Positions 3,836-39,104 of a stretch of 64,000 bases of DNA are shown piece by piece (position 1 is the first letter of the stretch; the number at the start of each line of letters is the position of its first letter). Where the stretch lies: NCBI GenBank assembly GCA_963663225.1, contig OY760142.1, forward strand, positions 192,001 to 256,000. The letters run 5' to 3'. The stretch comes from Nitrospirota bacterium. Lineage in GTDB: Bacteria; Nitrospirota; UBA9217. The notes under the pieces are model-generated. The model worked only from the letters and a program-made list of their open reading frames with translations. It was not told the origin of the DNA and ran no database searches. The position numbers and the translations under genes were made by a program.

Positions 3836-3874
3836 ACTATCCTCCTGTATCAAGCACGCGATGCATTCTTTTAT

Positions 3875-3902: not shown

Positions 3903-3914
3903 GCTGGTTTTTAC

Positions 3915-19028: not shown

Positions 19029-19039
19029 TTCATGGTATT

Positions 19040-23244: not shown

Positions 23245-23273
23245 TATCCATTAAATTTTTTACCGCAAACGCA

Positions 23274-24371
23274 CTATTTAACGTCGCAACGGAAATTTCC
23301 CGAATAATCCACGCTACCATTTTTGGCGAGTACCACGAGGTTCATTTTTCTAAAACTCGGCACTAAACCCAGCGGTGCATAATCTTCAAAATTCAGATAT
23401 GTTGCATTTTCAAATACTACTCCCTTCGCGTTCATCTCTTCCGCACGTTTTACGGCTTCATACAGGAGTGCTGCTATATGCGGCATGCTGCATTCTTTAA
23501 AAGGATTTACAATCAGGAAGTCGACAACAATAAAAAATTGTGTTTTGCTTTCCTTGATCGTTTCTAACGGATAAAAATTTATAAAAGCGTTTATTTCACC
23601 ATCGCGTTCTACTACAAAAGTTCTGTGCGTGGGATGGCCAAAACAGTAGTGTTTGAGCTGATCTTCCGCCATGGTCAGCATAAAATGCGGTGCATCGGGA
23701 ATTTTATTAAACAATTGCGTCAACTGTCCGGCATCAGCTTCTTCTGCAATTCTTATTCTGGCAGAACCGGGCAACGGAGAATTGTCTTGCAGGTATTTTT
23801 TCAAACGTGCGGGCATGACTACACACTGGTTGAATGTTGAATAAGTTTTTCGCTTCACCTGAAAATATTTTGCCGACAGTTTATCACCTATGCTTTTTAA
23901 TGGCTTTCCTTCTTCAATATAGGCAAATGTCGCGCTGCAGTCGGGCTCATAGAAATCTGCATCAGGGTGAAATAAATGAGTATGTTCGGCCAACTGCATT
24001 ACACAATCCATCCTGTGGCGTAAATCAAGCCGGGGAGAAACTGCAAGGTGGGTGTTTAAATATGAATTCATTACATTCCCATTACAGATCATTTTTCTAG
24101 GGAGAAAACTCTGAAAGGCCACTAATTCATCATCAAGGAACGCTCCAAGAAGTATGTTTTTGTCAGTATTGGGTCCTCCATACAACCACAGTAAATAGTC
24201 CTGGGGAAATACCGGGCTTCCTGTTTTGCCGTACAATTGGCTCCAGATAGAATTCAAAAATGTGCCTATTTTCTGCATTTCTTGCAATGAAAGACGCGAA
24301 AATTTCAGCAATCGTTCATGCCGCAGCAATTTTATAAAAGAAGTAAGTGGTTGTCCGTTTTTAATTTGCAT
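23274..24371 (-). CDS. Tandem-GNAT acyltransferase resembling glycylpeptide N-myristoyltransferase
   Basis: By-eye similarity to NMT segments: DYLLWLYGGP...LVAFQSFLPRK...THLAVSPRL and RIAEEADAGQLTQL...TFVVERDGEINAFINFYPL. Confidence 0.6.
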   Translation of the reverse strand: MQIKNGQPLTSFIKLLRHERLLKFSRLSLQEMQKIGTFLNSIWSQLYGKTGSPVFPQDYLLWLYGGPNTDKNILLGAFLDDELVAFQSFLPRKMICNGNVMNSYLNTHLAVSPRLDLRHRMDCVMQLAEHTHLFHPDADFYEPDCSATFAYIEEGKPLKSIGDKLSAKYFQVKRKTYSTFNQCVVMPARLKKYLQDNSPLPGSARIRIAEEADAGQLTQLFNKIPDAPHFMLTMAEDQLKHYCFGHPTHRTFVVERDGEINAFINFYPLETIKESKTQFFIVVDFLIVNPFKECSMPHIAALLYEAVKRAEEMNAKGVVFENATYLNFEDYAPLGLVPSFRKMNLVVLAKNGSVDYSGNFRCDVK

Positions 24372-24421
24372 GTATTATGTCCAAGATGTCGCCATGGTCG
24401 CTCAAGGTGAATTATTTCGGT

Positions 24422-26050
24422 CTATTTGTCCGACGTTCCGTAAACGCTGCTGAGCAGCGCTCTGTCTATTTTCTTGCTTTTATTTTTGGGAAGCTGTTCG
24501 AGTCTGACAAGATGCTGCGGGATCATATATCGGGGCAGGCTCTTTTTCAGGTTGTGGTGAATCTCTTCATGGCAGTCCGCGGCCGCCTCGTAAACAAGTT
24601 TGAGTGACTTAATTTCACCGTTTTCCCGGACCGGGATGACAACATTACCCGTCACTGAATCAACTTTTGAAACAACTCTCTCGATTTCCTGCAAATTGAT
24701 TCGATATCCGAAAAATTTGATCTGACTGTCCTTGCGGCCATGGATGCAGTAGCCGACCCCGGGAATAAAAGACGCGACATCCCCGGTCCTGTAAAACGGC
24801 ACCCCGTGCTCATCCCTTCCAAAAACCTTGTTCGTTTTGTCAGGATCATTCCAATATCCGATAGACAAATGAGGAGAATGGACGATGAGCTCTCCTCGCT
24901 CTTCATTTTCCGGGAAGTCGGTTTTGTCAAGCGTGAAACGGATTCCCATGATCGGGAAACCGATGGGAACGGCGCCTCCGTCCTCGCCCTTGTAATCGTT
25001 CAGCGAGAAAACAGCCATCAGTGACGATTCAGTAGATCCATAGCCGTTGATAAACTTTGCGTTGGGCAGCATGGCCATCACAGTTGCCAAAATATTCCGG
25101 TTGGCGGGTTCTCCGCCGAGCAAAACAGTTTTTAGCCCCTGAAGATGCTCCGGCTTGATCAGACCGCTGTTTACGAGAGCGTTCAGCGTCGAGGTGACCA
25201 GCAGCGTTCTGGTGACTTTGTACGTATATGTAAGGTCCAGAATGTCCTTCGGAAAAATTACTTCTTCTGGGTAAACAGCAAGTGTTCCACCTGAACACAG
25301 CGGTGGAAATATGTCAGCGGTTGAGGCGGAGAATGCGGTTGCATTCAGCCCACTGGTCACGTCATCCACGTTATAACCCAGGGTATCGATCACCCACTGG
25401 ACATTCTTGAAAATATTGCCGTGGGGAATCATGACGCCTTTCGGCTCGCCGGTGGAGCCTGACGTGAAATAAATCATCGCCAGATCATTCGGCAAAAGGT
25501 CTACTTTTTGTGGATCATCCCGCCGCGCGCTTCCGAACGGCAATTTGACGAAATCGCGTTCTTCGCCATCGTCAAGCAGAACGGCCTGAAAACGCCCTGG
25601 AGATAGTTCCGCACATTTTCTGAACAGGTCAGCTGAAAAGCGGTCGGCAAAAACGCGAAGCGGCGATATTTCAATCAATAAATCAGTCAGTCTGGCCGGC
25701 GGTGTTTTGGTGTCCAGAGGAACAACGACTCCTCCCGCTCTTATGATGCCGATCATGGCGGCATACAGATAGATTGACCTGTTCATCATGAGTGCGACAC
25801 GATCGCCTTTTTTCAGACCACTCTCCTGCAGATACTGTGAAACATCGAGAGTCAGTTCGCGCAGTTCATGATAGGTCCATGCTTTGTCATACAGCCGTAT
25901 CGCGGCTTTTGATGCGTGCAAAGCAAACATCTTATCGAGCAGATCCATGATGGTAGAAACGGCTGATTGATTTTCTGCTTGTTTCTGGTTTATCGCGGTG
26001 TTTTTTTCCATGGGATTCTTTTTGACAATTGCATTGTCCTGAAGTTCCAT
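24422..26050 (-). CDS. Stand-alone NRPS/DltA-like adenylation enzyme
   Basis: YFTSGSTGEPKG (A3), FSAS (A4 variant), NGYGSTE (A5), YRTGD (A7), GRKDSQIK, PRYMIP, LPKNKSKKIDR (A10). Start at 26050 or 26011. Confidence 0.88.
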   Translation of the reverse strand: MELQDNAIVKKNPMEKNTAINQKQAENQSAVSTIMDLLDKMFALHASKAAIRLYDKAWTYHELRELTLDVSQYLQESGLKKGDRVALMMNRSIYLYAAMIGIIRAGGVVVPLDTKTPPARLTDLLIEISPLRVFADRFSADLFRKCAELSPGRFQAVLLDDGEERDFVKLPFGSARRDDPQKVDLLPNDLAMIYFTSGSTGEPKGVMIPHGNIFKNVQWVIDTLGYNVDDVTSGLNATAFSASTADIFPPLCSGGTLAVYPEEVIFPKDILDLTYTYKVTRTLLVTSTLNALVNSGLIKPEHLQGLKTVLLGGEPANRNILATVMAMLPNAKFINGYGSTESSLMAVFSLNDYKGEDGGAVPIGFPIMGIRFTLDKTDFPENEERGELIVHSPHLSIGYWNDPDKTNKVFGRDEHGVPFYRTGDVASFIPGVGYCIHGRKDSQIKFFGYRINLQEIERVVSKVDSVTGNVVIPVRENGEIKSLKLVYEAAADCHEEIHHNLKKSLPRYMIPQHLVRLEQLPKNKSKKIDRALLSSVYGTSDK

Positions 26051-26054
26051 CGCT

Positions 26055-27266
26055 TTACACGACAATTTCAGCAGGCAGCGCGTGACTGAGAAAATGAAGC
26101 GGGCTTGCTGAAAAACCATATGCTCCTGAATTAAAGAAGAGGAGAACGTCGCCTTCCTCGATGTCGGCAGCCAGTTCAATATCAGTTGCCAATACATCGT
26201 CGGGAATGCAAAGGCTGCCGGTTATTGTGTACCTGATTTCAGCACCGGATTTTTCCTCTCCTGACAGTGTATCAATCTCGTAGTTACGCCGTATTACCTG
26301 TCCAATACCGCCGGCCGCCGCATAGTGTTGATGCATACCGCCGTCAACGACAAGAAATTCACGAGCGTAGCCCTTCTTGCGATACAACACGTGAACCGCG
26401 TAAAGCCCGCATTCCGCCACCAGAAAGCGGCCTGGCTCGATGATGAACGTGGTGTTTCTGAGCGGAGCCGTAAGCTCTTCATCGGCAAAAAGTCTGGAGA
26501 GACCTTCCCTAAGCGCCGCAAGATCGAGCGGGGGTTTTTTCCCGAACATATCTATCCCCCAGCCGCCGCCAAAGTTTATTTTTTCGATGACAATTCCGTA
26601 TTTGTTCGCAATTTCGACGCTTTTTTCGAGAATAAAGCGATAATTGCTCAAAATCTTGTCTGATTCCTGATATTGTGAACCAAGATGCAGGTGCAGGCCC
26701 CGGAAGCGGAGCATCTCCGGGTGGGATTTGATTACGGCAATGGCTTCCTCCAACTGGTCTTCAGGAATGCCGAACTGGGTATCTCCTCCCATCTTCATGG
26801 CTGAGGCCGCAGGACGCGTTTTGGGGTTTACCCTGATGCCCACGTTTCCGGCTTTCTTTTTTGCGCGGCAAAGTTTCGCTATCGTGTGTATTTCTGAAAC
26901 GCTTTCAGCATTTATGCAGGAAACACCGGCATCGATCGCCTGCGATAATTCATCAAGGGTTTTTCCGGGACCGGTGAATTCTATGCTATCTGACGAAAAT
27001 CCGGCAATCAGTGCCGCCGCGAGTTCCCCCCCCGAGGCCACGTCGGCACCCATGCCAAGTGCGTTCATTGTTCTTAAGATGTCATTATTGGGATTGGCCT
27101 TGAACGCATAATGGATTTTGAAATGCTCTGGCAGACAATCTGACAGGTCACGATACTTTTTTTCAATGACCTTTTTAAAATAACAAAAAACCGGAAGCTT
27201 TCTCCCATCAAGAAAAGCGAGAAGTTCCGATTTTGGTATCAGCTTGTAAAATTCTTGCTTGTTCAT
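26055..27266 (-). CDS. PLP-dependent fold-III decarboxylase (exosortase-A-associated; DAP decarboxylase/BtrK-like)
   Basis: HYAFKANP (PLP lysine), DVASGGE, TGPGKT, HLHLGSQ, NFGGG, EPGRFLV, GSLCIPDD, GAYG. Confidence 0.87.
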   Translation of the reverse strand: MNKQEFYKLIPKSELLAFLDGRKLPVFCYFKKVIEKKYRDLSDCLPEHFKIHYAFKANPNNDILRTMNALGMGADVASGGELAAALIAGFSSDSIEFTGPGKTLDELSQAIDAGVSCINAESVSEIHTIAKLCRAKKKAGNVGIRVNPKTRPAASAMKMGGDTQFGIPEDQLEEAIAVIKSHPEMLRFRGLHLHLGSQYQESDKILSNYRFILEKSVEIANKYGIVIEKINFGGGWGIDMFGKKPPLDLAALREGLSRLFADEELTAPLRNTTFIIEPGRFLVAECGLYAVHVLYRKKGYAREFLVVDGGMHQHYAAAGGIGQVIRRNYEIDTLSGEEKSGAEIRYTITGSLCIPDDVLATDIELAADIEEGDVLLFFNSGAYGFSASPLHFLSHALPAEIVV

Positions 27267-28863
27267 ATTTGTTTTTTATTTCCGCGTATCGAACTTTGCC
27301 GTTTTCAGCCAGGGGCAGACTTTTCACAATGTTGATGTTGTCAGGCACCATATACGACGGCAGGCGTTCCTTCATATGTTTGATAAGGTCTTCTTTTTTT
27401 AGACCGTCACAGGAAATGATTTCCGCTATTATGTTGTGGCCTTTCCGATCATCCGGAATTCCCACTACCGCGCAGTGTGTCACTCCAGGATGTTCCAGAA
27501 TGCAGCTTTCCACTTCTTTGGGATAAATTCTGAATCCTGAGCTCTTGATCATTCCATCTTCACGTCCCAAAACATACAGAAAACCATCGCGGTCGATTTT
27601 TCCACGGTCACCGGTAAAAACCACCTTGCCCGCAGAGATCGTTGGCTTTAAACACGCGGGTATCTCTGCAAGTTTTTTCTGCGAACCAGCAACTTCATTG
27701 ATATACCCAAGCATGGTGCCAGCACCGTAATGAATTATTTCTCCTTCTTCGTCCGGGGATGCGATTTGGGTATTGTCTTTCAAAATAAAAATGCGAGTCC
27801 CCTTAACCGGACGGCCTACCGATGTCATTTTACCATCATAGTCGTTCGCTTTTAATATGCCGCTTCTGAACGTTTCACTCTGCCCGTATGTTTTTATTAT
27901 TTTCGTCCTCGGGAAATAATGCTTCAACTGTTCCAAATATTTTCGTGCGAGGTCTCCTCCGGAAACAGTGATGTATCGCAATGTTTTCGTATCTTCCGGG
28001 AAGCCGTCTTCTCGGGGAACAGAAAGCATATCGGCCCAGATGGTAGGCACTGCGGAAATCCCTGAGATATTAAATCGTTTGATTGCCGTTGCAATATCCC
28101 GTGGAAACCAGGAATTCAAAATAATAAGATGGGCGCCCGATAAAATGCTCGAAAAGAGCTGATTCAGTCCGACATCAAACGAAAAAGGCAGCAGGCTGAG
28201 CAAACAATCTTCCCTGTTAATTTCAAAATCTTCAATTTCTGTGGTGACTCTGACGTACAGATCGTCGCGATCGATTAACACACCCTTTTGCTCACCTGTC
28301 GATCCTGAAGTAAATAAGCAGTATCCGCGTTTTTTCTGGGAATTTGAGAATGGAGCATGTATCCGGGGATCGCCCATGCCGTCAATTGCTGCAGAAGCGC
28401 CGGATTGTTGAGATTCCTGGACCCTGCGAGCCGGGATAAAATTCAAAAACTCGATTCCATCGCTACAAAGAGCAAACCGCATATTCGATGTAATAGCATC
28501 TTCAGACGACATAATCTGCTTTACCGTGCTTCTGTTGAGAATGATAAATTTAGGTTTGGCAACTCTCGCCAATCTTATTACGTGAGGTGGCTTCAGCCTC
28601 GAATTCAATGAACAGGCGGCGCCGCCGGCCAAAATGGCACCAAGAATGGTTACTGCTGCATCGATGGACTTGTTCATGTAACTAGCAACCAGATCATTCG
28701 GCTGCATCCCCTCTCTGGTAAAGAAGTCTGCAACTTCTTTTACTTTTCGAGCCAGCATGCCATAGGTCAGGGTTTGGAGTGTTCCCCCGGGCAAACAGTG
28801 GGAAATCGCAGCTTTGTCATTGTGTCGCGCAAATGCCTGCTCTATGCGTCGGGAAAGAATCAA
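27208..28863 (-). CDS. AMP-forming acyl/aminoacyl ligase (exosortase-A-associated type)
   Basis: FTSGSTGEQKG, LPFSFDVGLNQL, YGQSETFRS, FTGD, GREDGMIKSSGFRI, ENGKV. Confidence 0.86.
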   Translation of the reverse strand: MILSRRIEQAFARHNDKAAISHCLPGGTLQTLTYGMLARKVKEVADFFTREGMQPNDLVASYMNKSIDAAVTILGAILAGGAACSLNSRLKPPHVIRLARVAKPKFIILNRSTVKQIMSSEDAITSNMRFALCSDGIEFLNFIPARRVQESQQSGASAAIDGMGDPRIHAPFSNSQKKRGYCLFTSGSTGEQKGVLIDRDDLYVRVTTEIEDFEINREDCLLSLLPFSFDVGLNQLFSSILSGAHLIILNSWFPRDIATAIKRFNISGISAVPTIWADMLSVPREDGFPEDTKTLRYITVSGGDLARKYLEQLKHYFPRTKIIKTYGQSETFRSGILKANDYDGKMTSVGRPVKGTRIFILKDNTQIASPDEEGEIIHYGAGTMLGYINEVAGSQKKLAEIPACLKPTISAGKVVFTGDRGKIDRDGFLYVLGREDGMIKSSGFRIYPKEVESCILEHPGVTHCAVVGIPDDRKGHNIIAEIISCDGLKKEDLIKHMKERLPSYMVPDNINIVKSLPLAENGKVRYAEIKNKYEQARILQADTKIGTSRFS

Positions 28864-29132
28864 GCTTCATCTCCCGCCAATTTCTTTTCAATAAAATACG
28901 ATATTTTGCTTATGGAGTCGAAATTGTCCAAAGAAAGTTCCGCCGGATAAAAAATAACGTCAAATTTCTCTGAAAAAGCCTCAATAATCTGGATTGCTCC
29001 GAGAGAGTCGATTAGCCCGCTGTCGATCAGCGAATCCTCTTCACCAATACTAGTACCACTCCCATTGCCATCCTTTGCGGCAATCTCTGTTATTATTTGT
29101 TTAACCGCTCCTTTTATTTCTGCTAACTCCAT
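28860..29132 (-). CDS. Acyl/aminoacyl carrier protein
   Basis: Acidic, 90 aa; SGLIDSLG phosphopantetheine motif; LDNFDSI. Confidence 0.9.
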   Translation of the reverse strand: MELAEIKGAVKQIITEIAAKDGNGSGTSIGEEDSLIDSGLIDSLGAIQIIEAFSEKFDVIFYPAELSLDNFDSISKISYFIEKKLAGDEA

Positions 29133-29194
29133 GCTGAATGCCCCCCATTCAACGATTATTTTTATAATGATGCAGCAATGTATATTTTTTTGAC

Positions 29195-29905
29195 TTACCT
29201 TTGCAGGAGATCCCGCAAGAGGTTATCCAGTATCTCATACGCTTTTTGGTTTAAGTGTGTTCCGTCTCCACTGTTTAACTCATCACGAAGAGAACGCTCG
29301 CGGTCGCTTTTCCGTAATGCAGCCTCGAGGTCAATCAGCGTGATTTTCTCTTTTTTGGCGTAATCCCGAATCCAGTCATTGTAGGCCAAAATGCCTTCTA
29401 TTTTGCCTTGCACAGCCTCCGCGCGTGCGCGTGTAACAGGGACAACGGTCGCCAATATCACCTCTACGCGCGCGTCACGAATCCGCTTGACCCATTTTTG
29501 CACCAGTTCCTGCTGAAGGGCGATGTCGCCTGGAAAATAGGACGAACATTCTTTAATAACAATAATGTTCGGCAACACGGGTGACGGCCGGAAAAAACCC
29601 TTTATGTATGACAGCGTAAAGTGAAACTTTCTTTTCGGACGCATCAGGATTTCATCGATTGCTTCCGTTTTATCAAACTGATACACCGCTATAAATTCGA
29701 CGCTATGAGCGCGGTCACCCGTCCGCTGGGAATACTCTGCAAGTTTCCATGCCTTCCCGATGGAAGCCCCGACAAACATCACGTTTTTTTTGGAGGCATC
29801 CGCTTTACCCTGATCCTGGATTTGCGTACAACCGGTCAGCACAAGCAAGCCTGCCGCTACAACGAAGAATATTTTTTTTACGGCCTTAATCATAGAGAAC
29901 CTCAC
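29195..29905 (-). CDS. SGNH/GDSL-family lipoprotein (esterase or acyltransferase)
   Basis: Lipobox LVLTGC, block I FVGASIG, block V DGTHLN. Confidence 0.75.
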   Translation of the reverse strand: MRFSMIKAVKKIFFVVAAGLLVLTGCTQIQDQGKADASKKNVMFVGASIGKAWKLAEYSQRTGDRAHSVEFIAVYQFDKTEAIDEILMRPKRKFHFTLSYIKGFFRPSPVLPNIIVIKECSSYFPGDIALQQELVQKWVKRIRDARVEVILATVVPVTRARAEAVQGKIEGILAYNDWIRDYAKKEKITLIDLEAALRKSDRERSLRDELNSGDGTHLNQKAYEILDNLLRDLLQR

Positions 29906-30501: not shown

Positions 30502-30527
30502 TGACCTGACTCCTTTTGTATTCCCGC

Positions 30528-32612
30528 CTAGTTTACAGCGTGTGCGTGAGCACGGTCGCTTTCGTCTGCCGTTAAAATGAGATCAACCAGCTCTTTTCTG
30601 GTTTCCTCAAAAAAATCTGGAGTCCATTCCGATTCTCCATCCTGACGACAGACTGGTTCTCCGGATTTGCCTCGGATTCTTGAGAAAAAGTCTTCATAAC
30701 GGGAAGTGTCTATTCCTTTCCGCTTCAATACAGAAACCCGCTTTACAAGCTGATACAGCAGCTTATGGTCATTAATCCCCTCGCGGATTGCTTCCCATTT
30801 GAGCGTCGGCACCGGACCGGACGGAGCTGGATAGGCCAGATACAGATCGTGCCCCGGTGTATCCGCCTTTTCCGGGAGGCCGCTTGCATTCTGCGTATTC
30901 TGAAATGTCCAGGATGACATTCCGTCAATGTTCTTCATCCACGTGTAATATCCGTACACATACCGTGCATAGGCGGGATTATCACATTGAGTAGTTATAT
31001 TATTATTGTATATCCAGTAACGTGAACCATTTTGATGGGCGGCCTGCATCTCGTGTTCATTCATTTCCGCAGAGCACAGATAATCAACCGGCGAGAACTG
31101 ATCGTATCGAAGAGACGTAAGCATTGTTTTTCCACCCGACTCTTTTACGGCCTTAAGCAGCACGGGCGTTACAGCATATCGTTTCTTCTGTAAATCCTGC
31201 TGTGAATCATCCGGTTCATCGATAGGTAAAAATATGACCGGTGGGCAGTGATTTTCTTTTGCAAATTCCGTAACTGTTCTGACAAGATGACGTAGACGCT
31301 CCTCGTGTACTTTTTGATCAAAACCTTTTATGTTTCCCGGATGCTTCGGTTTGGCAGTTTGGATAAGATGTCCCATATACCAGATGACAGGCTTTGTAAA
31401 TCCGGTGTCTCGTGCCGCGAGAAGAGCGGCGAAAACATCGTCCAGAACCAGGGTGCCGTCATCCCGGGTAAGAGCGACGAAGGGAGAATGGATTGAAAGC
31501 GTAGTCATGCCATGCTCTCTATAGTTTTTCAAAACTGCTCGCGCCGAGCGCCGGAGTTCGTTCTTCTCTTTCTCATTCCATGGAAAGACAAGCTCCGTAA
31601 ATTCGTACGTCATGAGCATGAAATAGTCTTTATCCGGGATATCTTCTGTAATAATGGGGAGAACCATAATCTGGAGCGGTATTGTTTTACTCTTCCCATA
31701 TTGCGGCAAAACCGTTATTGTTCCCGTGTACTTGCCCGGCAGAACGGATTGATCAATTTTTGCTGTTAGCCAGAAACGGCAATGACCTCCTTTTTTAACG
31801 GAAGTCTTGCTCTTAGATCTGATCAGGGCAGGGAGCCGCCTGAATTCTCCTGGCGGGAGGCCTGTCGAATCCTCTACTGATTCGACAACCCCGATTTTAA
31901 TTTTTTCTTTTGCGATGGTCCCCTGCGGGCCGTTCAAATCTTCAATTGCTAATTTTACCGTTCCGAGGTTCCTGCTAGAAAATAAGGAAATACTGATTGG
32001 AAGATATATATTTCGTGCCGTCCGTATTGATATTTCGCGAATGCTTTCCGCCGCTTCCGGCACCGTCCCCGGATATTCATAGAGTAGCGGAGACCGCAAA
32101 AAAACAACATAGCCGTCGGGGAAATCGACATCATTCGTTTTTATCTTCGCGGATTCATTCCGTAACGGCATCTCACGGTAGGCGATGGGAGTATGTATCC
32201 GTTCGGAATCGTTATAGTTCCTCAGCTCGGATTGCAATACAGACTGGGTAATAAAAACCGTGAAGATCCGTTGATCGTCTGCGGCCTCCAGCTGAATGTC
32301 GTATTTCCCTTCAGACAACGGGGATGGAAGATCGAAAAGAAGATTGCCGTTTTTCTCCCGTACCAGTATGGTCTGTGCCTGTGCAATAATATTGCCGTCC
32401 CGACAAAGAGTTCCTTTGACCTTCAGCCGGTCAATATGCTCCGCACCGCCAGAAACAGTAAACGCAGCATAAAGCGCTTTCTTCAGCTGAACTTGGTCAA
32501 GCACCGCTACTCTATCCCGAAGAATTAGAGAATCTATATGGATTGATTTTGTTTTGCAGGCTGGGCAAAGAACAGCAACGACAAGAGCAAATATCCCAAG
32601 AAGTCTTTTCAC
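30528..32612 (-). CDS. Exported (probable lipoprotein) glycoside-hydrolase-like protein (GH123/DUF4091-like)
   Basis: Signal peptide with Cys (LCPAC), FWLT...PGKYTGTI, PIDEPDD acidic pair, PTLKWEAIREGINDHK C-terminal motif. Confidence 0.6.
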   Translation of the reverse strand: MKRLLGIFALVVAVLCPACKTKSIHIDSLILRDRVAVLDQVQLKKALYAAFTVSGGAEHIDRLKVKGTLCRDGNIIAQAQTILVREKNGNLLFDLPSPLSEGKYDIQLEAADDQRIFTVFITQSVLQSELRNYNDSERIHTPIAYREMPLRNESAKIKTNDVDFPDGYVVFLRSPLLYEYPGTVPEAAESIREISIRTARNIYLPISISLFSSRNLGTVKLAIEDLNGPQGTIAKEKIKIGVVESVEDSTGLPPGEFRRLPALIRSKSKTSVKKGGHCRFWLTAKIDQSVLPGKYTGTITVLPQYGKSKTIPLQIMVLPIITEDIPDKDYFMLMTYEFTELVFPWNEKEKNELRRSARAVLKNYREHGMTTLSIHSPFVALTRDDGTLVLDDVFAALLAARDTGFTKPVIWYMGHLIQTAKPKHPGNIKGFDQKVHEERLRHLVRTVTEFAKENHCPPVIFLPIDEPDDSQQDLQKKRYAVTPVLLKAVKESGGKTMLTSLRYDQFSPVDYLCSAEMNEHEMQAAHQNGSRYWIYNNNITTQCDNPAYARYVYGYYTWMKNIDGMSSWTFQNTQNASGLPEKADTPGHDLYLAYPAPSGPVPTLKWEAIREGINDHKLLYQLVKRVSVLKRKGIDTSRYEDFFSRIRGKSGEPVCRQDGESEWTPDFFEETRKELVDLILTADESDRAHAHAVN

Positions 32613-32660
32613 AATCGTTCAGTCATCTATGATAAAGAGATGCAGAGGGTGAAATAAAGA

Positions 32661-33290
32661 TCACTTTTTATCCCGGTAGAGGCTGATAAGATGCTCCTGC
32701 AGTAACCTGCAATCACGGTTTTTCAGCTGCTGAATCCGTTCCGGCGACCGGGATTCGCTCTGCTGAATGCCTGCAAAATATGCCGAGGGACACTGTTTTT
32801 TCCATAATGCCAATACTTTCTCTTTATATTTGTCGGTCGTTGAAACAATTCTTGCAGGATTTCCGGCCACGATTGCTCCTTCAGGGACATCCTTGGTCAC
32901 AACTGCACCCGCCCCTACAATTGCATTCGGTCCGATTTTAACATTTCCCAGAATGATTGCGTTAAGGCCGATAAAACAATTATCGGCTATCTCAATGGGG
33001 CCGAACCGTTGCACGCTGGGGTGTTCGTCGGTAAAGATCCAAGGCGACCCGTCATGGCTCAGAAAAATCACGTTCGGTGCTATCGTGCAATGGCTGCCGA
33101 TTCTGATTAAATACGGCTCCTGTCCTAGCGAGCTTACGTATATTCTGTTGCGGTCGCCGATGATCGCTCCCTGCTTCCTAAAATATTCCGCAATGGTGAA
33201 TTCGTTGTACCGGTTCAGTTCAATACTATGCTGAATGCGCCGTTTTACGCTTTGTACAATTTTAATCAGTGCGTTTACCATCACAACCAC
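32661..33290 (-). CDS. Hexapeptide-repeat acyltransferase
   Basis: [37 protein letters not shown]. Confidence 0.88.
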
Positions 33291-33335
33291 CGAACCTCAC
33301 TTGCTTTTCTTGCGATAAGAACATCACCAACAGAT

Positions 33336-34355
33336 CTATAATCCCAGTTTCTTTTTTGCGTTATTTATAAACGCCAACTCCGGATCGGAGTATATTTTTT
33401 GATACCCGTCTTCCCTTGTCATTACTCCGTCCCGGACCATGTTGGCGATTTCCCACACGTACGGGTGAAAACCATGGCGTTTCAGATGGACATCATTCCC
33501 GAAGGCATTGAGAAGACAGTTCGTGGAATTGCTGTCCGTGTCCTGAGGCGCCGTCCACCCGAATTCTCCGATCTGTTCAACCAGTGTTCCTTCGTGGTAA
33601 AACTCCCAGGCCATGGGGTGAACGTTATAGGGGAACCGTTCCTGCATGGCGAAATGCTTCTCATTCAGAAAATATGATTCGATATCGGTTCCAGCCACTT
33701 CGCGCAGCGGATTCAGGACCGCTTCCTGCGACATTTTGACGAGTGACGGATTCGTTCTCATAATCGAGGACTGCACCGGCGCCTGTCCAGGCGACCACCC
33801 GTATCCGATCATGGGTATTTCCTGTTCAATGGCTGTTTTCAAACAGTATGACTTCACAATAGCCATACACGAGGTACAGATGGTACTTGCTCGTTCAAGC
33901 GTTTTTTTCGAATATAGATCGCGGTCTGCTGCAACTGCAAAAATTTTTTTCAAAATGTCCCAGCGCGGTTTGAAAAAAATATGGTCCACATTCAACCGAT
34001 CAGTCACCCGCCGAATGTTCGCCACGGCCGTCTCGGACACGAACCCGTTGTCCAGACTGACTGCCAGCACCCGCAGTCGGTATTTGTTTTTGAGCAGACT
34101 CATGGTGTAGGTCGAGTCTTTCCCGCCGCTATATGCCATCAAAATATCATAGGATCGGCGCCGGGCTGCCGGTCCTCCTGTCTGCTCCAGTAAATCCAGG
34201 AACTTCCGTTCATATCTTTTTTTGTCTTCGGCGTGTTTTTTTTCCTTTCCGGCGGCCTGCTGGCAGTGCACGCAAACACCGGCTTCATCAAAACTGATGC
34301 CGGGAAAGGTTCCCGGCAATATGCAGCGCGTACAAACGGTTATATTAGATGACAT
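33336..34355 (-). CDS. N-type ATP pyrophosphatase (PP-loop), N-acetyl-sugar amidotransferase (WbpG-like)
   Basis: CTRCILP...GVCVHC, YSGGKDS PP-loop, DNGF, CTSC, STNC. Start set at MSSNIT. Confidence 0.8.
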   Translation of the reverse strand: MSSNITVCTRCILPGTFPGISFDEAGVCVHCQQAAGKEKKHAEDKKRYERKFLDLLEQTGGPAARRRSYDILMAYSGGKDSTYTMSLLKNKYRLRVLAVSLDNGFVSETAVANIRRVTDRLNVDHIFFKPRWDILKKIFAVAADRDLYSKKTLERASTICTSCMAIVKSYCLKTAIEQEIPMIGYGWSPGQAPVQSSIMRTNPSLVKMSQEAVLNPLREVAGTDIESYFLNEKHFAMQERFPYNVHPMAWEFYHEGTLVEQIGEFGWTAPQDTDSNSTNCLLNAFGNDVHLKRHGFHPYVWEIANMVRDGVMTREDGYQKIYSDPELAFINNAKKKLGL

Positions 34356-35217
34356 GGTTTGCAGTCCTTTTCTTCGTGGCCCGTATTGCTCGTATTTTGT
34401 CTCCATCTTTGAAATACTCGATATTCTGATAACCGCCGCTTTTTTCGATTACTCGGGTGACCAGGGTCTCCTGCCGTTCACCGATTTCAAAGAGCAGGAC
34501 TCCGTCCGGCTTCAGCAACGGCTGCGCATCTGTGATCAGCCGGCGGTAGATGTTAATCCCGTATGGCCCGCCGTCAAGCGCGACGAGCGGCTCATGGTCA
34601 ATAATTTCGGCAGACAGTTTGCTGAGTGAGCTTGTCGGTATATAAGGCGGATTACATACGATGCAGTCTATATTTTCTTCGTATTCCACTCCTGCATAAG
34701 GCGCGAACAGGTCTCCGACCGCGAGAGAAATCCTGTCCTCGAGCTTGAACTTTGCCACGTTCCGGCGGGCTATCTCCACCGCGGCAGAACTGATGTCACT
34801 GGCCAGAACCGATACCTGTTGTGCCTGCAGGGCAATGGATACTGCGATGTTTCCGCAGCCGGTTCCTACTTCGATCAGCGTGAGGGTCTTGCCGGCAGAT
34901 TCTTTTTTACACAGCGATTCAAGAACTGCGTTCACTAATACTCTGGTTTCATCGGTCGGAATCAGCGTATCCGGAGTGCAGAAAAACATGCGTCCCATAA
35001 AATGCGCTTTACCGAGAATATACTCCCAGGGCATTCCTTTTTTCCTTTTTTGAATCGCAAGTTCAAGATTGATCTGTTCCCCCTCCGCATGCGTTAAGGT
35101 CGCTCCCCGCAGCGCGCCGCTCGACAGCAGGTCAAAAAGGCGCAAAGTCTCGTAAAGAGAGTTTTCCGTGCCGGCTTGTTCAATCAAAGTATAACTGCGT
35201 AAAAAATCATGGAACAT
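34345..35217 (-). CDS. prmC: PrmC/HemK-family SAM-dependent N-methyltransferase (divergent paralog inside the EPS locus)
   Basis: PWEYILG, LIPTDET (canonical LIPRPET), EVGTGCGNIA, NPPYIP, HEPLVALDGG, FEIG. Confidence 0.8.
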   Translation of the reverse strand: MFHDFLRSYTLIEQAGTENSLYETLRLFDLLSSGALRGATLTHAEGEQINLELAIQKRKKGMPWEYILGKAHFMGRMFFCTPDTLIPTDETRVLVNAVLESLCKKESAGKTLTLIEVGTGCGNIAVSIALQAQQVSVLASDISSAAVEIARRNVAKFKLEDRISLAVGDLFAPYAGVEYEENIDCIVCNPPYIPTSSLSKLSAEIIDHEPLVALDGGPYGINIYRRLITDAQPLLKPDGVLLFEIGERQETLVTRVIEKSGGYQNIEYFKDGDKIRAIRATKKRTANHVI

Positions 35218-35231
35218 GAATAATAACCTCG

Positions 35232-36782
35232 TTATTCGTTTACGGCCATCAAGAGTGTTTTGCTGATTTTACCCGTTGTAGTCTTTGGAAGAGTTTCCAG
35301 AATTTCTACATACTTGGGAACCATAAAGTTTTCGAGATGGTCCGCGCAATATTTCAAAATATCCTTTTCCGTCAGGCGCGCACCGTTCTCCAGCGCGACA
35401 TACGCTTTAATTGCCTGGCCGAAAATTTCATCCGGAACACCAACGACTGCCGCCTCCACAATGCCGTCGAGCGCATACAGTACATTTTCCACTTCCTTCG
35501 GACTGACTTTTTCACCCTTGCATTTTATGATATCGTCTTTTCTTGCAACAAAATAAAAATATCCGTCCTCGTCCGTTCTGAAAAGATCACCGGTGTATAA
35601 GAGCCGCTCTCCTGGATACGTGCCCGGCTTCAGACGTTTTGCCGTTTCTTCGGGCAGATCCCAATATCCAAGCATTACATTGGAACCTCTCACCACCAAT
35701 TCTCCCACCTCTCCGGGTGGCATCCGTCGGCCTTTTTCATCGACGATGAAAATTTCTTCATTCGGCATGCCTTTTCCCACGGAAGTGGGTTTTTTCTCAA
35801 GATCTGCCGGAGGCAGATAGGAAACCCGTTTGCATTCCGTCAAGCCGTACATCGAGTAGAGCTTTGCCTGGGGGAAAAGCTCACGCAATCTTTTTATATG
35901 GCTGACCGGCAGTGCCGCAGCGGTATTGGTAATGTACCGCAGAGTACTGAAGTCATATTTCTGAATATCTTTCATTTGCAGCAGAAGAGAAAAAATCGTC
36001 GGAACGCCGGGAAAACCCGTAACCTTTTCTTCAGTCATTACTTTAAGGACTTGAGCAGGGTAGGCAAAGGATTTTTCCAGCACGACGGTAGCGCCGACTC
36101 TGAATCCCATAAGAATCTGGTAAAGGCCGTAATCGAAGGTGAGCGGCAGCACATTGATAATGATATCCTGATCGGTATTGTCAAGATATGTCGTTATTGA
36201 ATGCGCAGCCGAAACCATGTTCAGGTGAGAGAGCATGACCCCTTTCGGATTTCCCGTTGATCCAGAAGTATAAACGATGGAAGCCAGATCGAGATCAATG
36301 CATGTTTTTTTTATGGAGCCGTTTATCGCATTGTTGCACGTAATTTTCTCAAAGGACAGAGGGGAGGACGCCAGACCGCTCCATATAACCGTTTGGAGAT
36401 GGGGGGAAGTCGTGGACGCCACGACGTCCTTCCGGGCGTTCTGGGTAATCATTACCTTTGCCCTGCTGTTGTTCAGAATATACTCAAGTTTTCCGGACTT
36501 GGTCGTGTGATTGATCATCATGAATGCCGCGTTTGCCTTGAGTATTCCGAAAAGCGCAATGACTGCTTCGACCGAGTTGTCCATGAATACGGCGACCCGG
36601 TCGCCGCGCTCAACTCCGGACGCCGCAAGAGCATGGGCAAGACGTTCTGAACGGGAATCTATATCAGCATACGTAAAACGCTTTCCCTGATAAATCAGCG
36701 CTGTTTTTTCCGGAAATTTTTGTGCGCTGGTTTCGAGAAAATGATTGACAAGTGTATGTCTGAACATGGCGGTGTCCATCAT
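35232..36782 (-). CDS. AMP-forming acyl/aminoacyl-carrier ligase
   Basis: YTSGSTGNPKG, LPLTFDYGLYQ, MYGLTECKR, YTGD, RKDDIIK, PKTTTGKI. Confidence 0.9.
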   Translation of the reverse strand: MMDTAMFRHTLVNHFLETSAQKFPEKTALIYQGKRFTYADIDSRSERLAHALAASGVERGDRVAVFMDNSVEAVIALFGILKANAAFMMINHTTKSGKLEYILNNSRAKVMITQNARKDVVASTTSPHLQTVIWSGLASSPLSFEKITCNNAINGSIKKTCIDLDLASIVYTSGSTGNPKGVMLSHLNMVSAAHSITTYLDNTDQDIIINVLPLTFDYGLYQILMGFRVGATVVLEKSFAYPAQVLKVMTEEKVTGFPGVPTIFSLLLQMKDIQKYDFSTLRYITNTAAALPVSHIKRLRELFPQAKLYSMYGLTECKRVSYLPPADLEKKPTSVGKGMPNEEIFIVDEKGRRMPPGEVGELVVRGSNVMLGYWDLPEETAKRLKPGTYPGERLLYTGDLFRTDEDGYFYFVARKDDIIKCKGEKVSPKEVENVLYALDGIVEAAVVGVPDEIFGQAIKAYVALENGARLTEKDILKYCADHLENFMVPKYVEILETLPKTTTGKISKTLLMAVNE

Positions 36783-37054
36783 CAGGCGTTTTGGACCGCA
36801 ACCGGTCCCGTACTTGCTTTTTTGGCGACAAAATCGGCGAGCTTGCCGATGGAATCAAAGTTATCGGGTATTATTTCATCATCGGTTACGGCGAACCCGA
36901 ATTTCTCTTCGACAAAGGACACTAGTTCGAGCACGCCGGTTGAGTCGATAATGCCTTTTTCCAGAAAAGAGACCTCGTCGGTCAGTGTATGGTCATCCTG
37001 ACCATATAAAAAGTTTTCTATGACAAAGGCTCTGATTACATCTTTCTGTTGCAT
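36782..37054 (-). CDS. Acyl/aminoacyl carrier protein
   Basis: FLEKGIIDSTGVLELV phosphopantetheine motif, PDNFDSI. ATG 37054 follows RBS AAGGGGAG. Confidence 0.92.
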   Translation of the reverse strand: MQQKDVIRAFVIENFLYGQDDHTLTDEVSFLEKGIIDSTGVLELVSFVEEKFGFAVTDDEIIPDNFDSIGKLADFVAKKASTGPVAVQNA

Positions 37055-37163
37055 AGTGGTGCTCCCCCTTTTGCTGGTTAATCGTATCTCTGTACACGTA
37101 TATGTATATGTTAAAATGCCCGATAGAGCTGAGTTGATATGCATCCAGACGATCGCGGGATAA

Positions 37164-39104
37164 TCAACGAATGCTCCGTTTTTTTACCTGAAATTGTTTT
37201 ATAAACTGGTCATACAGCAGCATCGTAGAAACAATACCGACAATGGCCATATTGTCCTTGAATCCCAAAACAGGGCTTTGTCTGCATTTTTTTACCAGGG
37301 TGGACACTGACCTGGGGTTGAAAAAACCGACTTCCTGCAGTTGCTTTTCTGAAAGGATTTCCTCAATATAGTCGGGTGACTCCTTTGCAAAAAAGCTTTT
37401 CGCGTCAGGGGCCATATAGGGCTGCTTAGTTCTCTTCACCACCGCCGGAGGCAGTAAGTTCCTCATGCTTTTCTTGAGAATATACTTTTCCGTAAGGGCG
37501 CACATTCTGATTGTGGGGGGCAGTTTGCAGGAAAACTCCACAAGCCGGTGATCAAGAAACGGGAACCTTCCTTCTATCGAATGCGCCATGGCAACCCGGT
37601 CACCCTGCGATGAGAGCAGATAGCCAGAAAGCAAAGTCTTGATTTCCATGTACTGCGCCTGTGAAATGTCGTCAAATGCACTGAAATCATCCGACAATAA
37701 ATCCGTCAAATCATACAGATTGTTATACCCGCGCAGCGTGTCTTTCAGTGCATCGGAAAAGAATGATTTTATTTTCGCAGTCGTGTTCCAGCGCGGAACA
37801 TGAGAAAAGTATTGGGGAGGATATTTGTCCGCATCCGTGTTAAAGAATGCTTCCGCGTATTTGACTGACCGCACCGGAGAATGCGCGAGATATGGATACA
37901 GACGTTTTAGAATCAGCTGCCTGAAACGGGAATCAGGATTTTTTTCCAAAAATCTTCGTACTTTGGTTTCCTTAAAAATATCATAACCGGCTAATATTTC
38001 ATCCGATCCTTCCCCCGTCAAAACAACCTTATATCCGCTTTCCCTGACCAGTTTTGACAAAAGAAAAAGTGGCGCCGGTGCAGTGCGCACAATGGGCTTC
38101 TCCGTATGCCAGACAACGTCCGGGAACACATTTCCGATATCGGCATAGGAACACTTGATATCGCTGTGGTCGGTCCCCAGATAGTCGATCATCTGCTTCT
38201 GATAGGAGCTTTCATCATAAACTTCATCGGCAAAGGTGACTGAAAATGTCCTTAAGGGCGTATCAGTGTATTTTTTTATAAGCGTCGTAATGACTGAAGA
38301 GTCTATTCCTCCGCTGAGGTATGCGCCCACCGGGACGTCAGCCCTCAGTTGGAGCCTTGTAGAGTCGATCAAAAGACTGCGCAATTCTTCGGCATACTGA
38401 GTTTCCGTTTTTGAACATGCATCGGGAGTAAAATCAGGATCCCAATACCGTTTCTGGACCAGTACACCGCGGGTAATGGTAATAGAATGTCCGGCGGGAA
38501 GTTCGAAAATATCTTTGAAGGCAGTCCTTGGCGGAATGGTCATCCAGAAGGTGAATATCTGGTCCAGAGCGCACGGATCTATTTCCCTCTTTACGCGGGA
38601 ATCGGCAAACAGGGATTTTATCTCCGATGCAAACAGCAGCGAATCTTCGATCCGGGTATAGAAAAGCGGACGAATACCCAGCCGGTCTCGCGCTATGAAG
38701 AAGACATCACCGGTTTTGTCCCAGATGGCAAATGCAAACTGGCCGTTCAGATAACCAAGGCATTCCGTACCGTATTCTTCATAAAGATGTACAATTACCT
38801 CGGTATCGGATTTTGTATAAAAAACGTGGCCTTTCTTCTGGAGAAATTCCCGCAGTTCGATGTAATTGAATATTTCACCGTTGAAAATGATTGCAATGGT
38901 TCTGTCTTCATTGTAAATCGGCTGGTTTCCACCCGCAAGGTCGATAATACTCAACCTGGCGTGCGCCAGTCCCGCCCGCAGATCACGATGGAATCCGTAT
39001 CCATCCGGACCGCGATGCTGCACCATCTCAATCATGTCCTTCAGGACATCCAGGGATATTTCCCTGTCGCGATGGAGGTTAAAAATGCCTGCTATGCCGC
39101 ACAT
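37164..39104 (-). CDS. asnB: Asparagine synthase (glutamine-hydrolysing) family amidotransferase
   Basis: N-terminal MCGIAG, HRGPD, RLSIIDL, NGEIFN, LSGGIDSS, TGEGSDE, RFPFLD. Confidence 0.92.
   Translation of the reverse strand: MCGIAGIFNLHRDREISLDVLKDMIEMVQHRGPDGYGFHRDLRAGLAHARLSIIDLAGGNQPIYNEDRTIAIIFNGEIFNYIELREFLQKKGHVFYTKSDTEVIVHLYEEYGTECLGYLNGQFAFAIWDKTGDVFFIARDRLGIRPLFYTRIEDSLLFASEIKSLFADSRVKREIDPCALDQIFTFWMTIPPRTAFKDIFELPAGHSITITRGVLVQKRYWDPDFTPDACSKTETQYAEELRSLLIDSTRLQLRADVPVGAYLSGGIDSSVITTLIKKYTDTPLRTFSVTFADEVYDESSYQKQMIDYLGTDHSDIKCSYADIGNVFPDVVWHTEKPIVRTAPAPLFLLSKLVRESGYKVVLTGEGSDEILAGYDIFKETKVRRFLEKNPDSRFRQLILKRLYPYLAHSPVRSVKYAEAFFNTDADKYPPQYFSHVPRWNTTAKIKSFFSDALKDTLRGYNNLYDLTDLLSDDFSAFDDISQAQYMEIKTLLSGYLLSSQGDRVAMAHSIEGRFPFLDHRLVEFSCKLPPTIRMCALTEKYILKKSMRNLLPPAVVKRTKQPYMAPDAKSFFAKESPDYIEEILSEKQLQEVGFFNPRSVSTLVKKCRQSPVLGFKDNMAIVGIVSTMLLYDQFIKQFQVKKRSIR

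Follow-up and report, generated by a model that had tools for sequence, protein, structure and literature searches.

Two carrier-protein cassettes in an exopolysaccharide operon

The region analyzed here is a stretch of 64,000 nucleotides (the window, C1:192001-256000) from a Nitrospirota bacterium whose genome (assembly GCA_963663225.1) consists of one contig and is 98.99% complete. On the minus strand of the window, 15 tightly packed genes at positions 22546-39104 encode two stand-alone acyl carrier proteins (ACP1 and ACP2), three adenylating enzymes (Lig1, Lig2 and Ade3) and a series of tailoring enzymes, which are arranged around two carrier-centered cassettes, A and B. Families were assigned by Pfam and NCBIfam profile scans of the operon genes. 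These scans recovered every gene and family named in an original prediction made from the sequence alone, all of them co-directional. The range given in that prediction, 23274-39104, covers 14 genes; the hexapeptide acyltransferase gene Hex3 (22546-23244, Hexapep 42 bits), which it also listed, lies 30 nt outside its start and brings the number to 15. The listed genes are real, and three more genes between the two cassettes had been omitted, encoding a 694-residue lipoprotein, the acyltransferase Hex2 and an SGNH-family lipoprotein.

The genes are separated by 0-109 nt or overlap, and they form the middle of one long minus-strand operon at approximately 1898-46600. Its opening genes are of the XrtA/PEP-CTERM type and comprise an ATPase (TIGR03015, 400 bits), an UpxY antiterminator, an export protein (TIGR03027), a chain-length determinant (TIGR03007), a tyrosine kinase (TIGR03018) and an outer-membrane protein (TIGR03016). 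The end of the operon encodes glycosyltransferases, Wzx, a Wzy-like protein, a PseB-like dehydratase, a PseC-like aminotransferase, a formyltransferase and four CE4 deacetylases. About 6 kb beyond the low end of the window, on the same strand, lies a nucleotide-sugar dehydrogenase gene (C1:185943-186473) that could supply uronic acids.

All catalytic motifs examined in the two cassettes are intact, i.e., the carrier serines, the ligase motifs A3, A5, A8 and A10, the lysine that holds pyridoxal phosphate (PLP), Cys2 of the AsnB-like enzyme, two PP-loops and the NPPY motif of a methyltransferase. Synteny of the entire block extends to two further species of the genus, and both cassette cores recur widely, which argues that the arrangement is not due to chance. 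As predicted, no condensation domain, ketosynthase or membrane-bound O-acyltransferase (MBOAT) turned up in the scans of the operon genes, and MBOAT (PF03062) had no match in the whole genome.

A BtrK-like decarboxylase is linked to a carrier and its ligase

The core of cassette B consists of ACP2 (28860-29132; PP-binding 26.6 bits, carrier serine in the motif LIDSLG), the ligase Lig2 (27208-28863; PF00501 193 bits) and a PLP-dependent decarboxylase (26055-27266). The ACP2 stop codon overlaps the start of Lig2 by 4 nt. The best solved relative of the decarboxylase is BtrK (7ru7/2j66), the L-glutamyl-[BtrI carrier] decarboxylase, with 270 bits and an E value of 2e-79 over residues 12-402, in comparison to 150 bits for the best diaminopimelate decarboxylase (LysA). 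The motifs AFKAN (with the lysine), GGGWG, EPGR and CIPDD are present and are invariant in 17 homologues. A quick maximum-likelihood tree of 79 decarboxylase sequences showed a split with 100% SH-aLRT support between a LysA clade of 29 rows, which includes the LysA of the genome itself and no ligase-adjacent member, and a second clade with all 34 ligase-adjacent homologues. An assignment as diaminopimelate decarboxylase was rejected on the basis of these scores and of the position outside the LysA clade, and the analogy to BtrK drawn in the original prediction is borne out at the level of sequence.

To assess linkage, 80 species-representative loci around decarboxylase relatives were retrieved, and the operon proteins were mapped onto them by tblastn, which under-counts short carrier genes. 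Loci with at least 2 kb of upstream DNA were split at 37% identity to the decarboxylase. At or above this value, 22 of 25 loci had a same-strand ligase that ended just upstream of the decarboxylase, and 20 of 25 had a carrier gene within 6 kb, in contrast to 11 of 44 and 4 of 44 for more distant relatives. This linkage suggests that the decarboxylase may act on a carrier-bound amino acid.

The best matches of Lig2 in the PDB are adenylation (A) domains of nonribosomal peptide synthetases (NRPS). All 35 decarboxylase-adjacent ligases, Lig2 included, share the motif FD.G.NQL, with FD[AVY]G at its start, and TE.[FH]RS after YGxxE; the amine-binding Asp and an Arg three residues after YGxxE are thus kept in 35/35. 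In Lig2 the pocket motifs are FDVG and SETFR, read from the motifs and not by alignment to VinN of the vicenistatin pathway. In NRPS A domains, the amine of the substrate is bound by the Asp of FD[AVY]G. The ligases of the window have amino-acid pockets of the NRPS type and not those of fatty-acyl-CoA ligases, and the NRPS-like character that had been ascribed to them stands.

Comparable chemistry has been described for several natural products. As described in PMC11350588, BtrJ, CtaD and FlvN adenylate Asp or Glu and attach the acid by its side-chain carboxyl to the carriers BtrI, CtaE and FlvL, after which BtrK, CtaF and FlvO decarboxylate the carrier-bound acid to 4-aminobutyrate or beta-alanine. 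For vicenistatin, PMC11284099 describes that VinN loads 3-methylaspartate on VinL, that VinO decarboxylates only after thioester formation, and that VinM, a second adenylating enzyme, aminoacylates the freed amine. By analogy, the gene order ACP2-Lig2-decarboxylase-Ade3 would reproduce the four roles of the Vin/Btr type.

In a betaproteobacterial locus, the carrier-ligase-decarboxylase trio is followed by a 2427-residue hybrid of NRPS and polyketide synthase (PKS) with the domain order A-T-KS-AT-aminotransferase (L039:11273-18556; L numbers denote retrieved loci), in which the decarboxylated unit may prime a polyketide.

A second adenylating enzyme and an N-myristoyltransferase-fold protein are accessories of cassette B

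Two further genes follow the decarboxylase. Ade3 (24422-26050; TIGR01733 275 bits; the open reading frame runs to 26197, with a likely start at 26050) is a second stand-alone adenylating enzyme of the NRPS type, whose best solved relative is the A domain of LgrA with 300 bits. Both the Ade3 of the window and its 94% identical relative carry Ser at the amine-binding Asp235, in a loop that is one residue shorter; 39 of 41 aligned members keep the Asp. This replacement suggests that Ade3 in the genus of the window probably uses a substrate other than an alpha-amino acid, possibly through a recent change.

The second gene (23274-24371) encodes a protein related to N-myristoyltransferases (NMT). 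Its sequence scores below the Pfam cut-off (19.5 against 27.9). In an AlphaFold model with a pLDDT of 86.2 and a pTM of 0.85, the top Foldseek matches are eukaryotic NMTs over the full length (approximately 370 columns), with an E value of 3e-18 and TM scores of 0.65-0.68. Judged by this predicted structure, the protein is a true double GNAT of the NMT type at the level of the fold, as its earlier label had implied. NMTs take an acyl group from its pantetheine thioester and transfer it to an amine.

Protein searches returned 40 relatives of Ade3 (46-94% identical) and 36 clusters in total for the NMT-like protein, which thus forms a small family. The NMT-like protein was present in 3 of 401 Nitrospirota genomes, all three from the genus of the window, and in none of 401 genomes of another phylum or of three further genomes searched. 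In the 80 species-representative loci, neither Ade3 nor the NMT-like gene accompanied the decarboxylase outside the genus. The protein searches nevertheless suggest that orthologues of both share contigs with decarboxylase orthologues, on the indirect evidence of contig sizes and of one pair of locus tags, VLZ10_14210 and VLZ10_14220, that are two genes apart. In a Syntrophales locus with a 64% identical decarboxylase (L023), Ade3 survives only as a decayed remnant at 590-1490, whose N- and C-terminal parts are read in different frames and together span about 900 bp; neither the locus nor the genome has the NMT-like gene, and a gene 60% identical to Hex3 follows directly. Since Ade3 and the NMT-like gene are decayed or missing together in this locus, they look like a dispensable pair.

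Cassette A couples a VinN-like ligase to two amidotransferases

The core of cassette A is AsnB-ACP-ligase plus a PP-loop amidotransferase. Its first gene encodes an AsnB-like glutamine amidotransferase (37164-39104; PF00733 315 bits, TIGR01536 516 bits) with the motifs MCGIAG, which holds Cys2, and SGGIDS. It is followed by ACP1 (36782-37054; PP-binding 21.3 bits; the listed open reading frame runs to 37144, with a probable start at M31), in which the carrier serine lies in the motif IIDSTG, and by Lig1 (35232-36782; AMP-binding 329 bits). The PP-loop slot is taken by a WbuX-like ATP-dependent amidotransferase (33336-34406) with the motif SGGKDS and a zinc-ribbon motif, CxxC...CxxC, that reaches 151 bits against TIGR03573, below the cut-off of 203.

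Orthologues of Lig1 that are at least 50% identical occur in 17 other genomes among the 401 Nitrospirota genomes, and 14 loci outside the genus were retrieved. In all 14, AsnB, an ACP1-type carrier and Lig1 stand together (AsnB 47-74% identical, the carrier 45-70%), and the carrier comes after AsnB. A PP-loop amidotransferase belongs to the block in 14/14 loci as well: seven have a WbuX-like orthologue (46-67% identical) and seven a NadE-like 'NAD synthase' (PRK00876), never both. Two unrelated PP-loop enzymes that alternate in one slot point to the same job for the cassette, which argues against the WbuX-like enzyme serving as a sugar acetamidino synthase here. The decarboxylase was found in none of the 14 loci.

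After LgrA and 8xjz (NRPS), the best PDB relatives of Lig1 are VinN (3wvn, 240 bits), malonyl-CoA synthetase and oxalate-CoA ligase, the last three of which all activate small dicarboxylates. The Lig1 motifs FDYGLYQ and YGLTECKR are invariant in the 14 orthologues and in a copy from Mesorhizobium. In VinN, residues D230, K330 and R331 bind 3-methylaspartate by its amine and its free carboxylate, as described in PMC11253843; FDYG and TECKR of Lig1 would occupy places matching Asp230 and Lys330-Arg331, with positions read from the motifs and not by alignment to VinN. An assignment of Lig1 as a canonical decarboxylase-linked ligase was rejected, because its pocket motifs differ from those of all 35 decarboxylase-adjacent ligases and its orthologues stand beside a decarboxylase in 0/14 loci.

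The Mesorhizobium copy lies on plasmid pMESCI01 of Mesorhizobium ciceri, where the genes are annotated as asnB, acyl carrier protein, class I adenylate-forming enzyme and nadE. Its proteins are 49-54% identical to those of the window (AsnB 50%), with the same ligase motifs. OxyD of oxytetracycline biosynthesis is a homologue of AsnB. This amidotransferase is held responsible for the malonamate starter unit according to PMC6164072.

Two side observations concern the wider family. Between nadE and a HemK/PrmC gene on pMESCI01 lies a gene for a 371-residue hypothetical protein without a Pfam match (L178:8592-9707). In addition, 6 of the 14 cassette A loci (L166, L167, L171, L172, L173 and L175) contain a second ligase, 33-39% identical and with a different loop (YGQTEAxARL), which the window does not have.

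A HemK-like methyltransferase accompanies ACP1-type carriers

Between Lig1 and the WbuX-like gene lies a HemK/PrmC-family methyltransferase gene (34345-35217) with an NPPY motif and 208 bits against TIGR03534, whose cut-off is 199. We rejected it as the release-factor enzyme of the genome, since a better copy, the housekeeping PrmC, is encoded at C1:793459 (281 bits). Orthologues at least 50% identical were detected in only 4 of the 401 Nitrospirota genomes. A metagenome scan yielded four loci with orthologues above the same limit, one of which is the same DNA as the contig of one of the genomes (G164). A carrier comes after the methyltransferase in all three distinct loci with room downstream (L130, L134 and L135). 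These carriers are 62-80% identical to each other, 32-37% to ACP1 and 29-31% to ACP2, and their further neighbors are a FemAB-like GNAT, a small GNAT-like protein, an arginase-family enzyme, an acyl-CoA dehydrogenase and another ligase. On pMESCI01, a HemK/PrmC gene with the NPPY motif (38.5% identical) lies two genes from the cassette. The methyltransferase thus travels with ACP1-type carriers, and not with AsnB or WbuX as such, and is a rare and variable accessory of cassette A.

NPPY methyltransferases modify planar nitrogens of amide or amino groups, which makes an amide or amidine on the carrier-bound acid the natural candidate for the substrate. A predicted complex of the methyltransferase with ACP1 reached a score of 0.01, which says nothing either way.

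The three loci also represent a recurring second type of cassette, in which a small GNAT-like protein, the HemK-like methyltransferase, an ACP, the arginase-family enzyme, the acyl-CoA dehydrogenase and a ligase are combined, in each case within a polysaccharide locus.

Neighborhood comparison therefore confirms two distinct carrier-centered cassettes, each with a core that is conserved as a unit elsewhere: AsnB-ACP-Lig1-PP-loop enzyme in 14/14 loci and ligase-decarboxylase in 22/25. It does not bear out the two sets of six genes that had been proposed as modules, as the methyltransferase, Ade3, the NMT-like gene and the hexapeptide genes vary between loci.

The operon is of the exosortase type in a genome without exosortase

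An exosortase gene is present in 13 of the 14 cassette A loci, a few genes downstream where mapped, and the contig of the fourteenth ends early. The exosortase scored above the XrtW cut-off in all five loci scanned. The genome of the window gave no match to exosortase A (TIGR03109), to the general exosortase family (PF09721) or to XrtW in profile and tblastn searches. There were also no PF07589 matches and no PEP-CTERM-like tails in 11290 frames. Exosortase is absent from the loci of the same genus as well, and none lies within 6 kb of the Mesorhizobium copy. The operon is thus of the exosortase (XrtA/XrtW) type, yet it resides in a genome with neither exosortase nor PEP-CTERM proteins. PEP-CTERM glycoproteins, which the original prediction had offered as acceptors, are excluded for this organism. 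Because exosortase, PEP-CTERM proteins and MBOAT are all missing from the genome, we take the target to be a glycan and not a PEP-CTERM protein.

The gene order in L167 is AsnB-ACP-ligase-WbuX-ligase-CE4-XrtW-Hex2-SGNH-CE4-Fem. The arrangement in the window looks like that of L167 minus the exosortase, plus the methyltransferase, Hex1, the 694-residue lipoprotein and the whole of cassette B.

Candidate transferases

Just downstream of the block, at 17901-21326 on the minus strand, lie three genes for FemAB-like double GNATs (Acetyltransf_6; PF13480, 64-88 bits), so the missing condensation domain does not leave the cassettes without a transferase. Members of this family stand beside the cassettes in L021, L022, L025, L032, L084, L130, L135, L169 and L175, and the three proteins are candidates for amide-forming transferases. 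Elsewhere, the trio of cassette B is accompanied by an MBOAT (L021 and L032), by an aminoglycoside 3-N-acetyltransferase-family gene inside the trio (L040) and, in several loci, by Acetyltransf_9 and FemAB-like GNATs. With no MBOAT in the genome of the window, transfer must be cytoplasmic, and the acceptor would most simply be the free amines that the aminotransferase and deacetylases of the operon provide.

The MBOATs (DltB/AlgI-like; L021:6638-8074 and L032:12639-14078) lie beside the closest Lig2-type trios outside the genus and would there offer a trans-membrane route like that of Dlt. In Actinoplanes, a FemAB-like Acetyltransf_6 domain and the carrier domain of the trio share one frame (L022:6685-8322). 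This may be a fusion or, in this GC-rich DNA, an artifact of open reading frame calling.

Comparison with known systems

Butirosin synthesis by BtrI, BtrJ and BtrK resembles cassette B in its stand-alone carrier, in the ATP-dependent loading of an acidic amino acid and in providing the closest solved relative of the decarboxylase. In that pathway, the freed amine is acylated a second time and the product goes to the amine of an amino sugar. BtrH transfers the butirosin side chain to an aminoglycoside amine. In contrast to butirosin, the ligase of the window is an AMP-binding (ANL) enzyme and not an ATP-grasp enzyme like BtrJ, no BtrH, BtrG or BtrO homologue was seen, and the genes belong to a Wzx/Wzy polysaccharide operon and not to an antibiotic cluster.

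The vicenistatin and fluvirucin sets, VinN/L/O/M and FlvN/L/O/M, are described with the same four roles and the same enzyme classes as the window. VinN is among the best solved relatives of Lig1, and the Asp and Lys-Arg or Arg pocket residues may be present in the window ligases, as judged by motif. Unlike these pathways, the window has no VinK-type acyltransferase, VinJ peptidase or PKS; Ade3 is not specifically VinM-like and has lost the amine-binding Asp; and the VinN-like ligase, Lig1, belongs to the cassette that has no decarboxylase.

The rhizobial asnB-ACP-adenylate-forming enzyme-nadE cassette of pMESCI01 shares gene order and ligase motifs with cassette A, whereas the window fills the PP-loop slot with a WbuX-like and not a NadE-like enzyme and has a methyltransferase inside the cassette and a second cassette after it. 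The families TIGR03098, TIGR03099 and TIGR03108 are the best-scoring curated families for Lig1 and Lig2, the decarboxylase and AsnB, respectively, and belong to the same kind of locus; in contrast to this exosortase A-associated set, the proteins of the window score below the cut-offs and the genome has no exosortase.

Two further systems place carrier chemistry on surface polymers. In the O-antigen cluster of Vibrio cholerae O1, the tetronate N-acyl group of perosamine is ascribed to the carrier RfbK and the ligase RfbL (WbeL), so that a carrier and a ligase inside a polysaccharide cluster are not new in principle. Their substrate is a hydroxy acid and neither a decarboxylase nor an amidotransferase is involved; the likeness to the window is one of roles. 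In the Dlt system (DltA, DltC, DltB and DltD), a carrier and an adenylating enzyme decorate a surface polymer with an amine-bearing acyl group, and L021 and L032 have an MBOAT by the trio. In contrast, the genome of the window has no MBOAT, and the DltA and DltC models score far below their cut-offs.

A proposed pathway and its alternatives

From the gene content, motifs, family relations, fold, synteny and co-occurrence described above, we infer the substrates, the order of steps, the transferases and the acceptor as follows. We consider it probable that two independent carrier cassettes build amino-acid-derived, nitrogen-rich acyl groups for the exopolysaccharide of the surrounding Wzx/Wzy operon. 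In cassette B, Lig2 would adenylate Asp or Glu at the side-chain carboxyl and load it on holo-ACP2, and the decarboxylase would then strip the carrier-bound acid of its free alpha-carboxyl, which would yield beta-alanyl- or 4-aminobutyryl-S-ACP2. Ade3 may acylate the freed amine, as VinM and BtrJ do; given the Ser in place of its amine-binding Asp, it would in this genus probably do so with a non-amino acid. The NMT-fold double GNAT would transfer an acyl group, held as the pantetheine thioester, to an amine.

In cassette A, Lig1, with its putative VinN-like pocket of Asp and Lys-Arg, would load a small amino-dicarboxylate, most likely Asp via its beta-carboxyl, on ACP1. The AsnB-like enzyme may then amidate the free carboxyl, in the manner proposed for OxyD and the malonamate starter, and the WbuX-like PP-loop enzyme, with NadE-like enzymes in its place in relatives, would perform a second ATP-dependent nitrogen transfer. 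The HemK-like NPPY methyltransferase could methylate the resulting planar amide or amidine nitrogen. The products of both cassettes are probably N-linked to free amines of amino sugars that would arise from the PseB/PseC-like and deacetylase genes of the operon, with the NMT-like and FemAB-like double GNATs as the likely transferases.

A number of observations weigh against this pathway. AsnB could amidate a uronic acid instead, as its gene stands directly after a TviC-like UDP-GlcNAcA 4-epimerase gene, which overlaps its start, and the gene for a nucleotide-sugar dehydrogenase is found 6 kb beyond the window. TIGR03573 bears the name 'N-acetyl sugar amidotransferase' and the WbuX family is annotated as making sugar acetamidino groups, and PtmH/ORF8 is described as N-methylating the acetimidoyl group of legionaminic acid. 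HMMER alignment of Lig1 to LgrA sets the loop gap a few residues further on than the motif-anchored Lys-Arg and Arg assignments. Ade3 is not specifically VinM-like, with about 112-120 bits to entries of the beta-aminoacyl-ACP synthetase/VinM type against 300 to LgrA, and its sharing of contigs with decarboxylase relatives (57-68% identical) is indirect, resting on contigs of equal size in 10 cases for Ade3 and 5 for the NMT-like protein. The curated exosortase-associated models all score below their cut-offs (TIGR03098 with 492 for Lig1 and 345 for Lig2 against 592; TIGR03099 with 353 for the decarboxylase against 478; TIGR03108 with 484 for AsnB against 817). Finally, the only phosphopantetheinyl transferase in the genome is of the AcpS type.

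Some of these points suit a scheme in which only the ACP-ligase pairs act on carriers, while AsnB forms a uronamide (e.g., GalNAcAN), the WbuX-like enzyme turns an N-acetyl into an acetamidino group and the methyltransferase N-methylates the latter. The epimerase gene, the dehydrogenase at C1:185943 and TviB-like dehydrogenases inside the block in L174 and L177 fit such sugar chemistry. We nevertheless regard it as unlikely. The composition and order of AsnB, ACP and ligase are kept in 14/14 loci and on the rhizobial plasmid without an epimerase beside them, and the alternation of WbuX-like and NadE-like enzymes, 7 and 7 of 14, fits one shared carrier-linked task. Moreover, the WbuX-like enzyme scores below its family cut-off, no HisH/HisF-like partner turned up in the operon scans, and the methyltransferase follows ACP1-type carriers in loci without AsnB and WbuX. 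The association with exosortases could instead mean that the cassettes serve exosortase-dependent sorting and make the acceptor for PEP-CTERM proteins, not a polysaccharide decoration as such. The exosortase beside cassette A in 13/14 loci, five of which were scanned and exceed the XrtW cut-off, and the naming of decarboxylase and ligase relatives as NCBIfam 'exosortase A system-associated' families would agree with this. As a present function it cannot apply here, where the motifs of both cassettes are intact in a genome without exosortase or PEP-CTERM tails, and the Mesorhizobium copy has no exosortase nearby; we judge this explanation very unlikely.

It is highly improbable, in our estimate, that the ligases are ordinary acyl-CoA or acyl-ACP synthetases whose carriers deliver fatty or short acyl groups, as a lipid anchor or O-acyl group, via the three hexapeptide acyltransferases. 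LpxA/LpxD-type hexapeptide enzymes do use acyl-ACP, NCBIfam names relatives of the ligases 'acyl-CoA ligase' and 'long-chain-fatty-acid--CoA ligase', and a hexapeptide transferase gene is a neighbor of the trio in four loci, after it in L023, L046 and L064 and before it in L098. However, the best solved relatives of all three ligases are amino-acid A domains of NRPS, the amine-binding Asp is invariant in the 35 trio ligases, a BtrK-type decarboxylase requires an amino-acid moiety, and the nearest solved relatives of Hex1 are acetyl-CoA-dependent sugar O-acetyltransferases and not LpxA or LpxD. We give still less credence to a diffusible small molecule, peptide-like or polyketide-primed, whose genes are merely located in the operon. 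The NRPS-PKS hybrid after the trio in L039 and Streptomyces loci that pair the decarboxylase with condensation and adenylation genes set a precedent for it, but the cassettes of the window stand in the middle of the operon, with export genes and glycosyltransferases around them and gaps of 0-109 nt, no condensation domain, ketosynthase, thioesterase or exporter of their own was found in the operon scans, and most related loci are polysaccharide loci.

In a scenario that we think quite unlikely, exosortase-linked cassettes and FemAB-like GNATs build a short amine-ended stem on the repeat unit of the polysaccharide, and this stem is the long-sought nucleophile to which exosortase joins PEP-CTERM proteins, similar to Fem glycine bridges and sortase. 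The genus of the window would then have lost exosortase and its substrates, kept the stem, added the second cassette and now use the stem only for charged, amide-rich groups of the polymer.

Both cassette cores are widespread. The original prediction had called the system undescribed, which holds in part: literature searches on the products or function of the exosortase-linked cassettes found no paper, and Haft 2006 does not mention the cassettes, whereas the cores belong to catalogued families (relatives of TIGR03098, TIGR03099 and TIGR03108) and the rhizobial version of cassette A is annotated publicly. These curated 'exosortase-associated' families and the rhizobial asnB-ACP-ligase-nadE cassette have catalogue entries to which no product is assigned. 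New here are the two cassettes side by side, a second adenylating enzyme in the VinM position with an NMT-fold partner, the alternation of WbuX-like and NadE-like enzymes and the host without exosortase. Comparison with solved pathways yields chemistry that is testable by mass spectrometry, i.e., on-carrier decarboxylation to beta-alanyl or 4-aminobutyryl groups and on-carrier amidation and N-methylation of an aspartate-like acid. If the proposed pathway is true, many genes automatically named 'acyl-CoA ligase', 'diaminopimelate decarboxylase', 'NAD synthase', 'asparagine synthase' or 'release-factor methyltransferase' carry the wrong name, there is a biosynthetic route for a class of polysaccharide substituents derived from amino acids, and the link between cassette A and exosortase becomes a handle on what exosortases attach proteins to.

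Hexapeptide acyltransferases and lipoproteins of the block

The remaining genes of the block lie on the same strand. A predicted lipoprotein of 694 residues (30528-32612), with a signal peptide and a lipobox-like N-terminus, stands between the cassettes and belongs to neither. It shows a weak likeness to the GH123 N-domain (PF22680 23.8 bits, below cut-off), and tblastn gave no match outside the genus in the loci examined.

Hex1 (32661-33290, Hexapep 45 bits), Hex2 (29902-30501, Hexapep_2 37 bits) and Hex3 are paralogues that are 46-51% identical. Among solved structures, maltose, galactoside and polysialic-acid O-acetyltransferases come closest to them, and we rejected the three proteins as acyl-ACP transferases of the LpxA/LpxD kind on this ground. 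Contrary to the original prediction, which had counted hexapeptide transferases among the members of the modules, they look from their relatives like ordinary O-acetyltransferases of the polymer and may stand outside the modules. Hex2 is paired with the gene for an SGNH/GDSL-family lipoprotein (29195-29905; PF13472 37 bits, lipobox LTGC). In L167, from a genome of another family, the same pair (Hex2 66% and SGNH 55% identical) lies directly after the exosortase at 3384-4800, which indicates that the Hex2-SGNH pair is older in the locus than cassette B.

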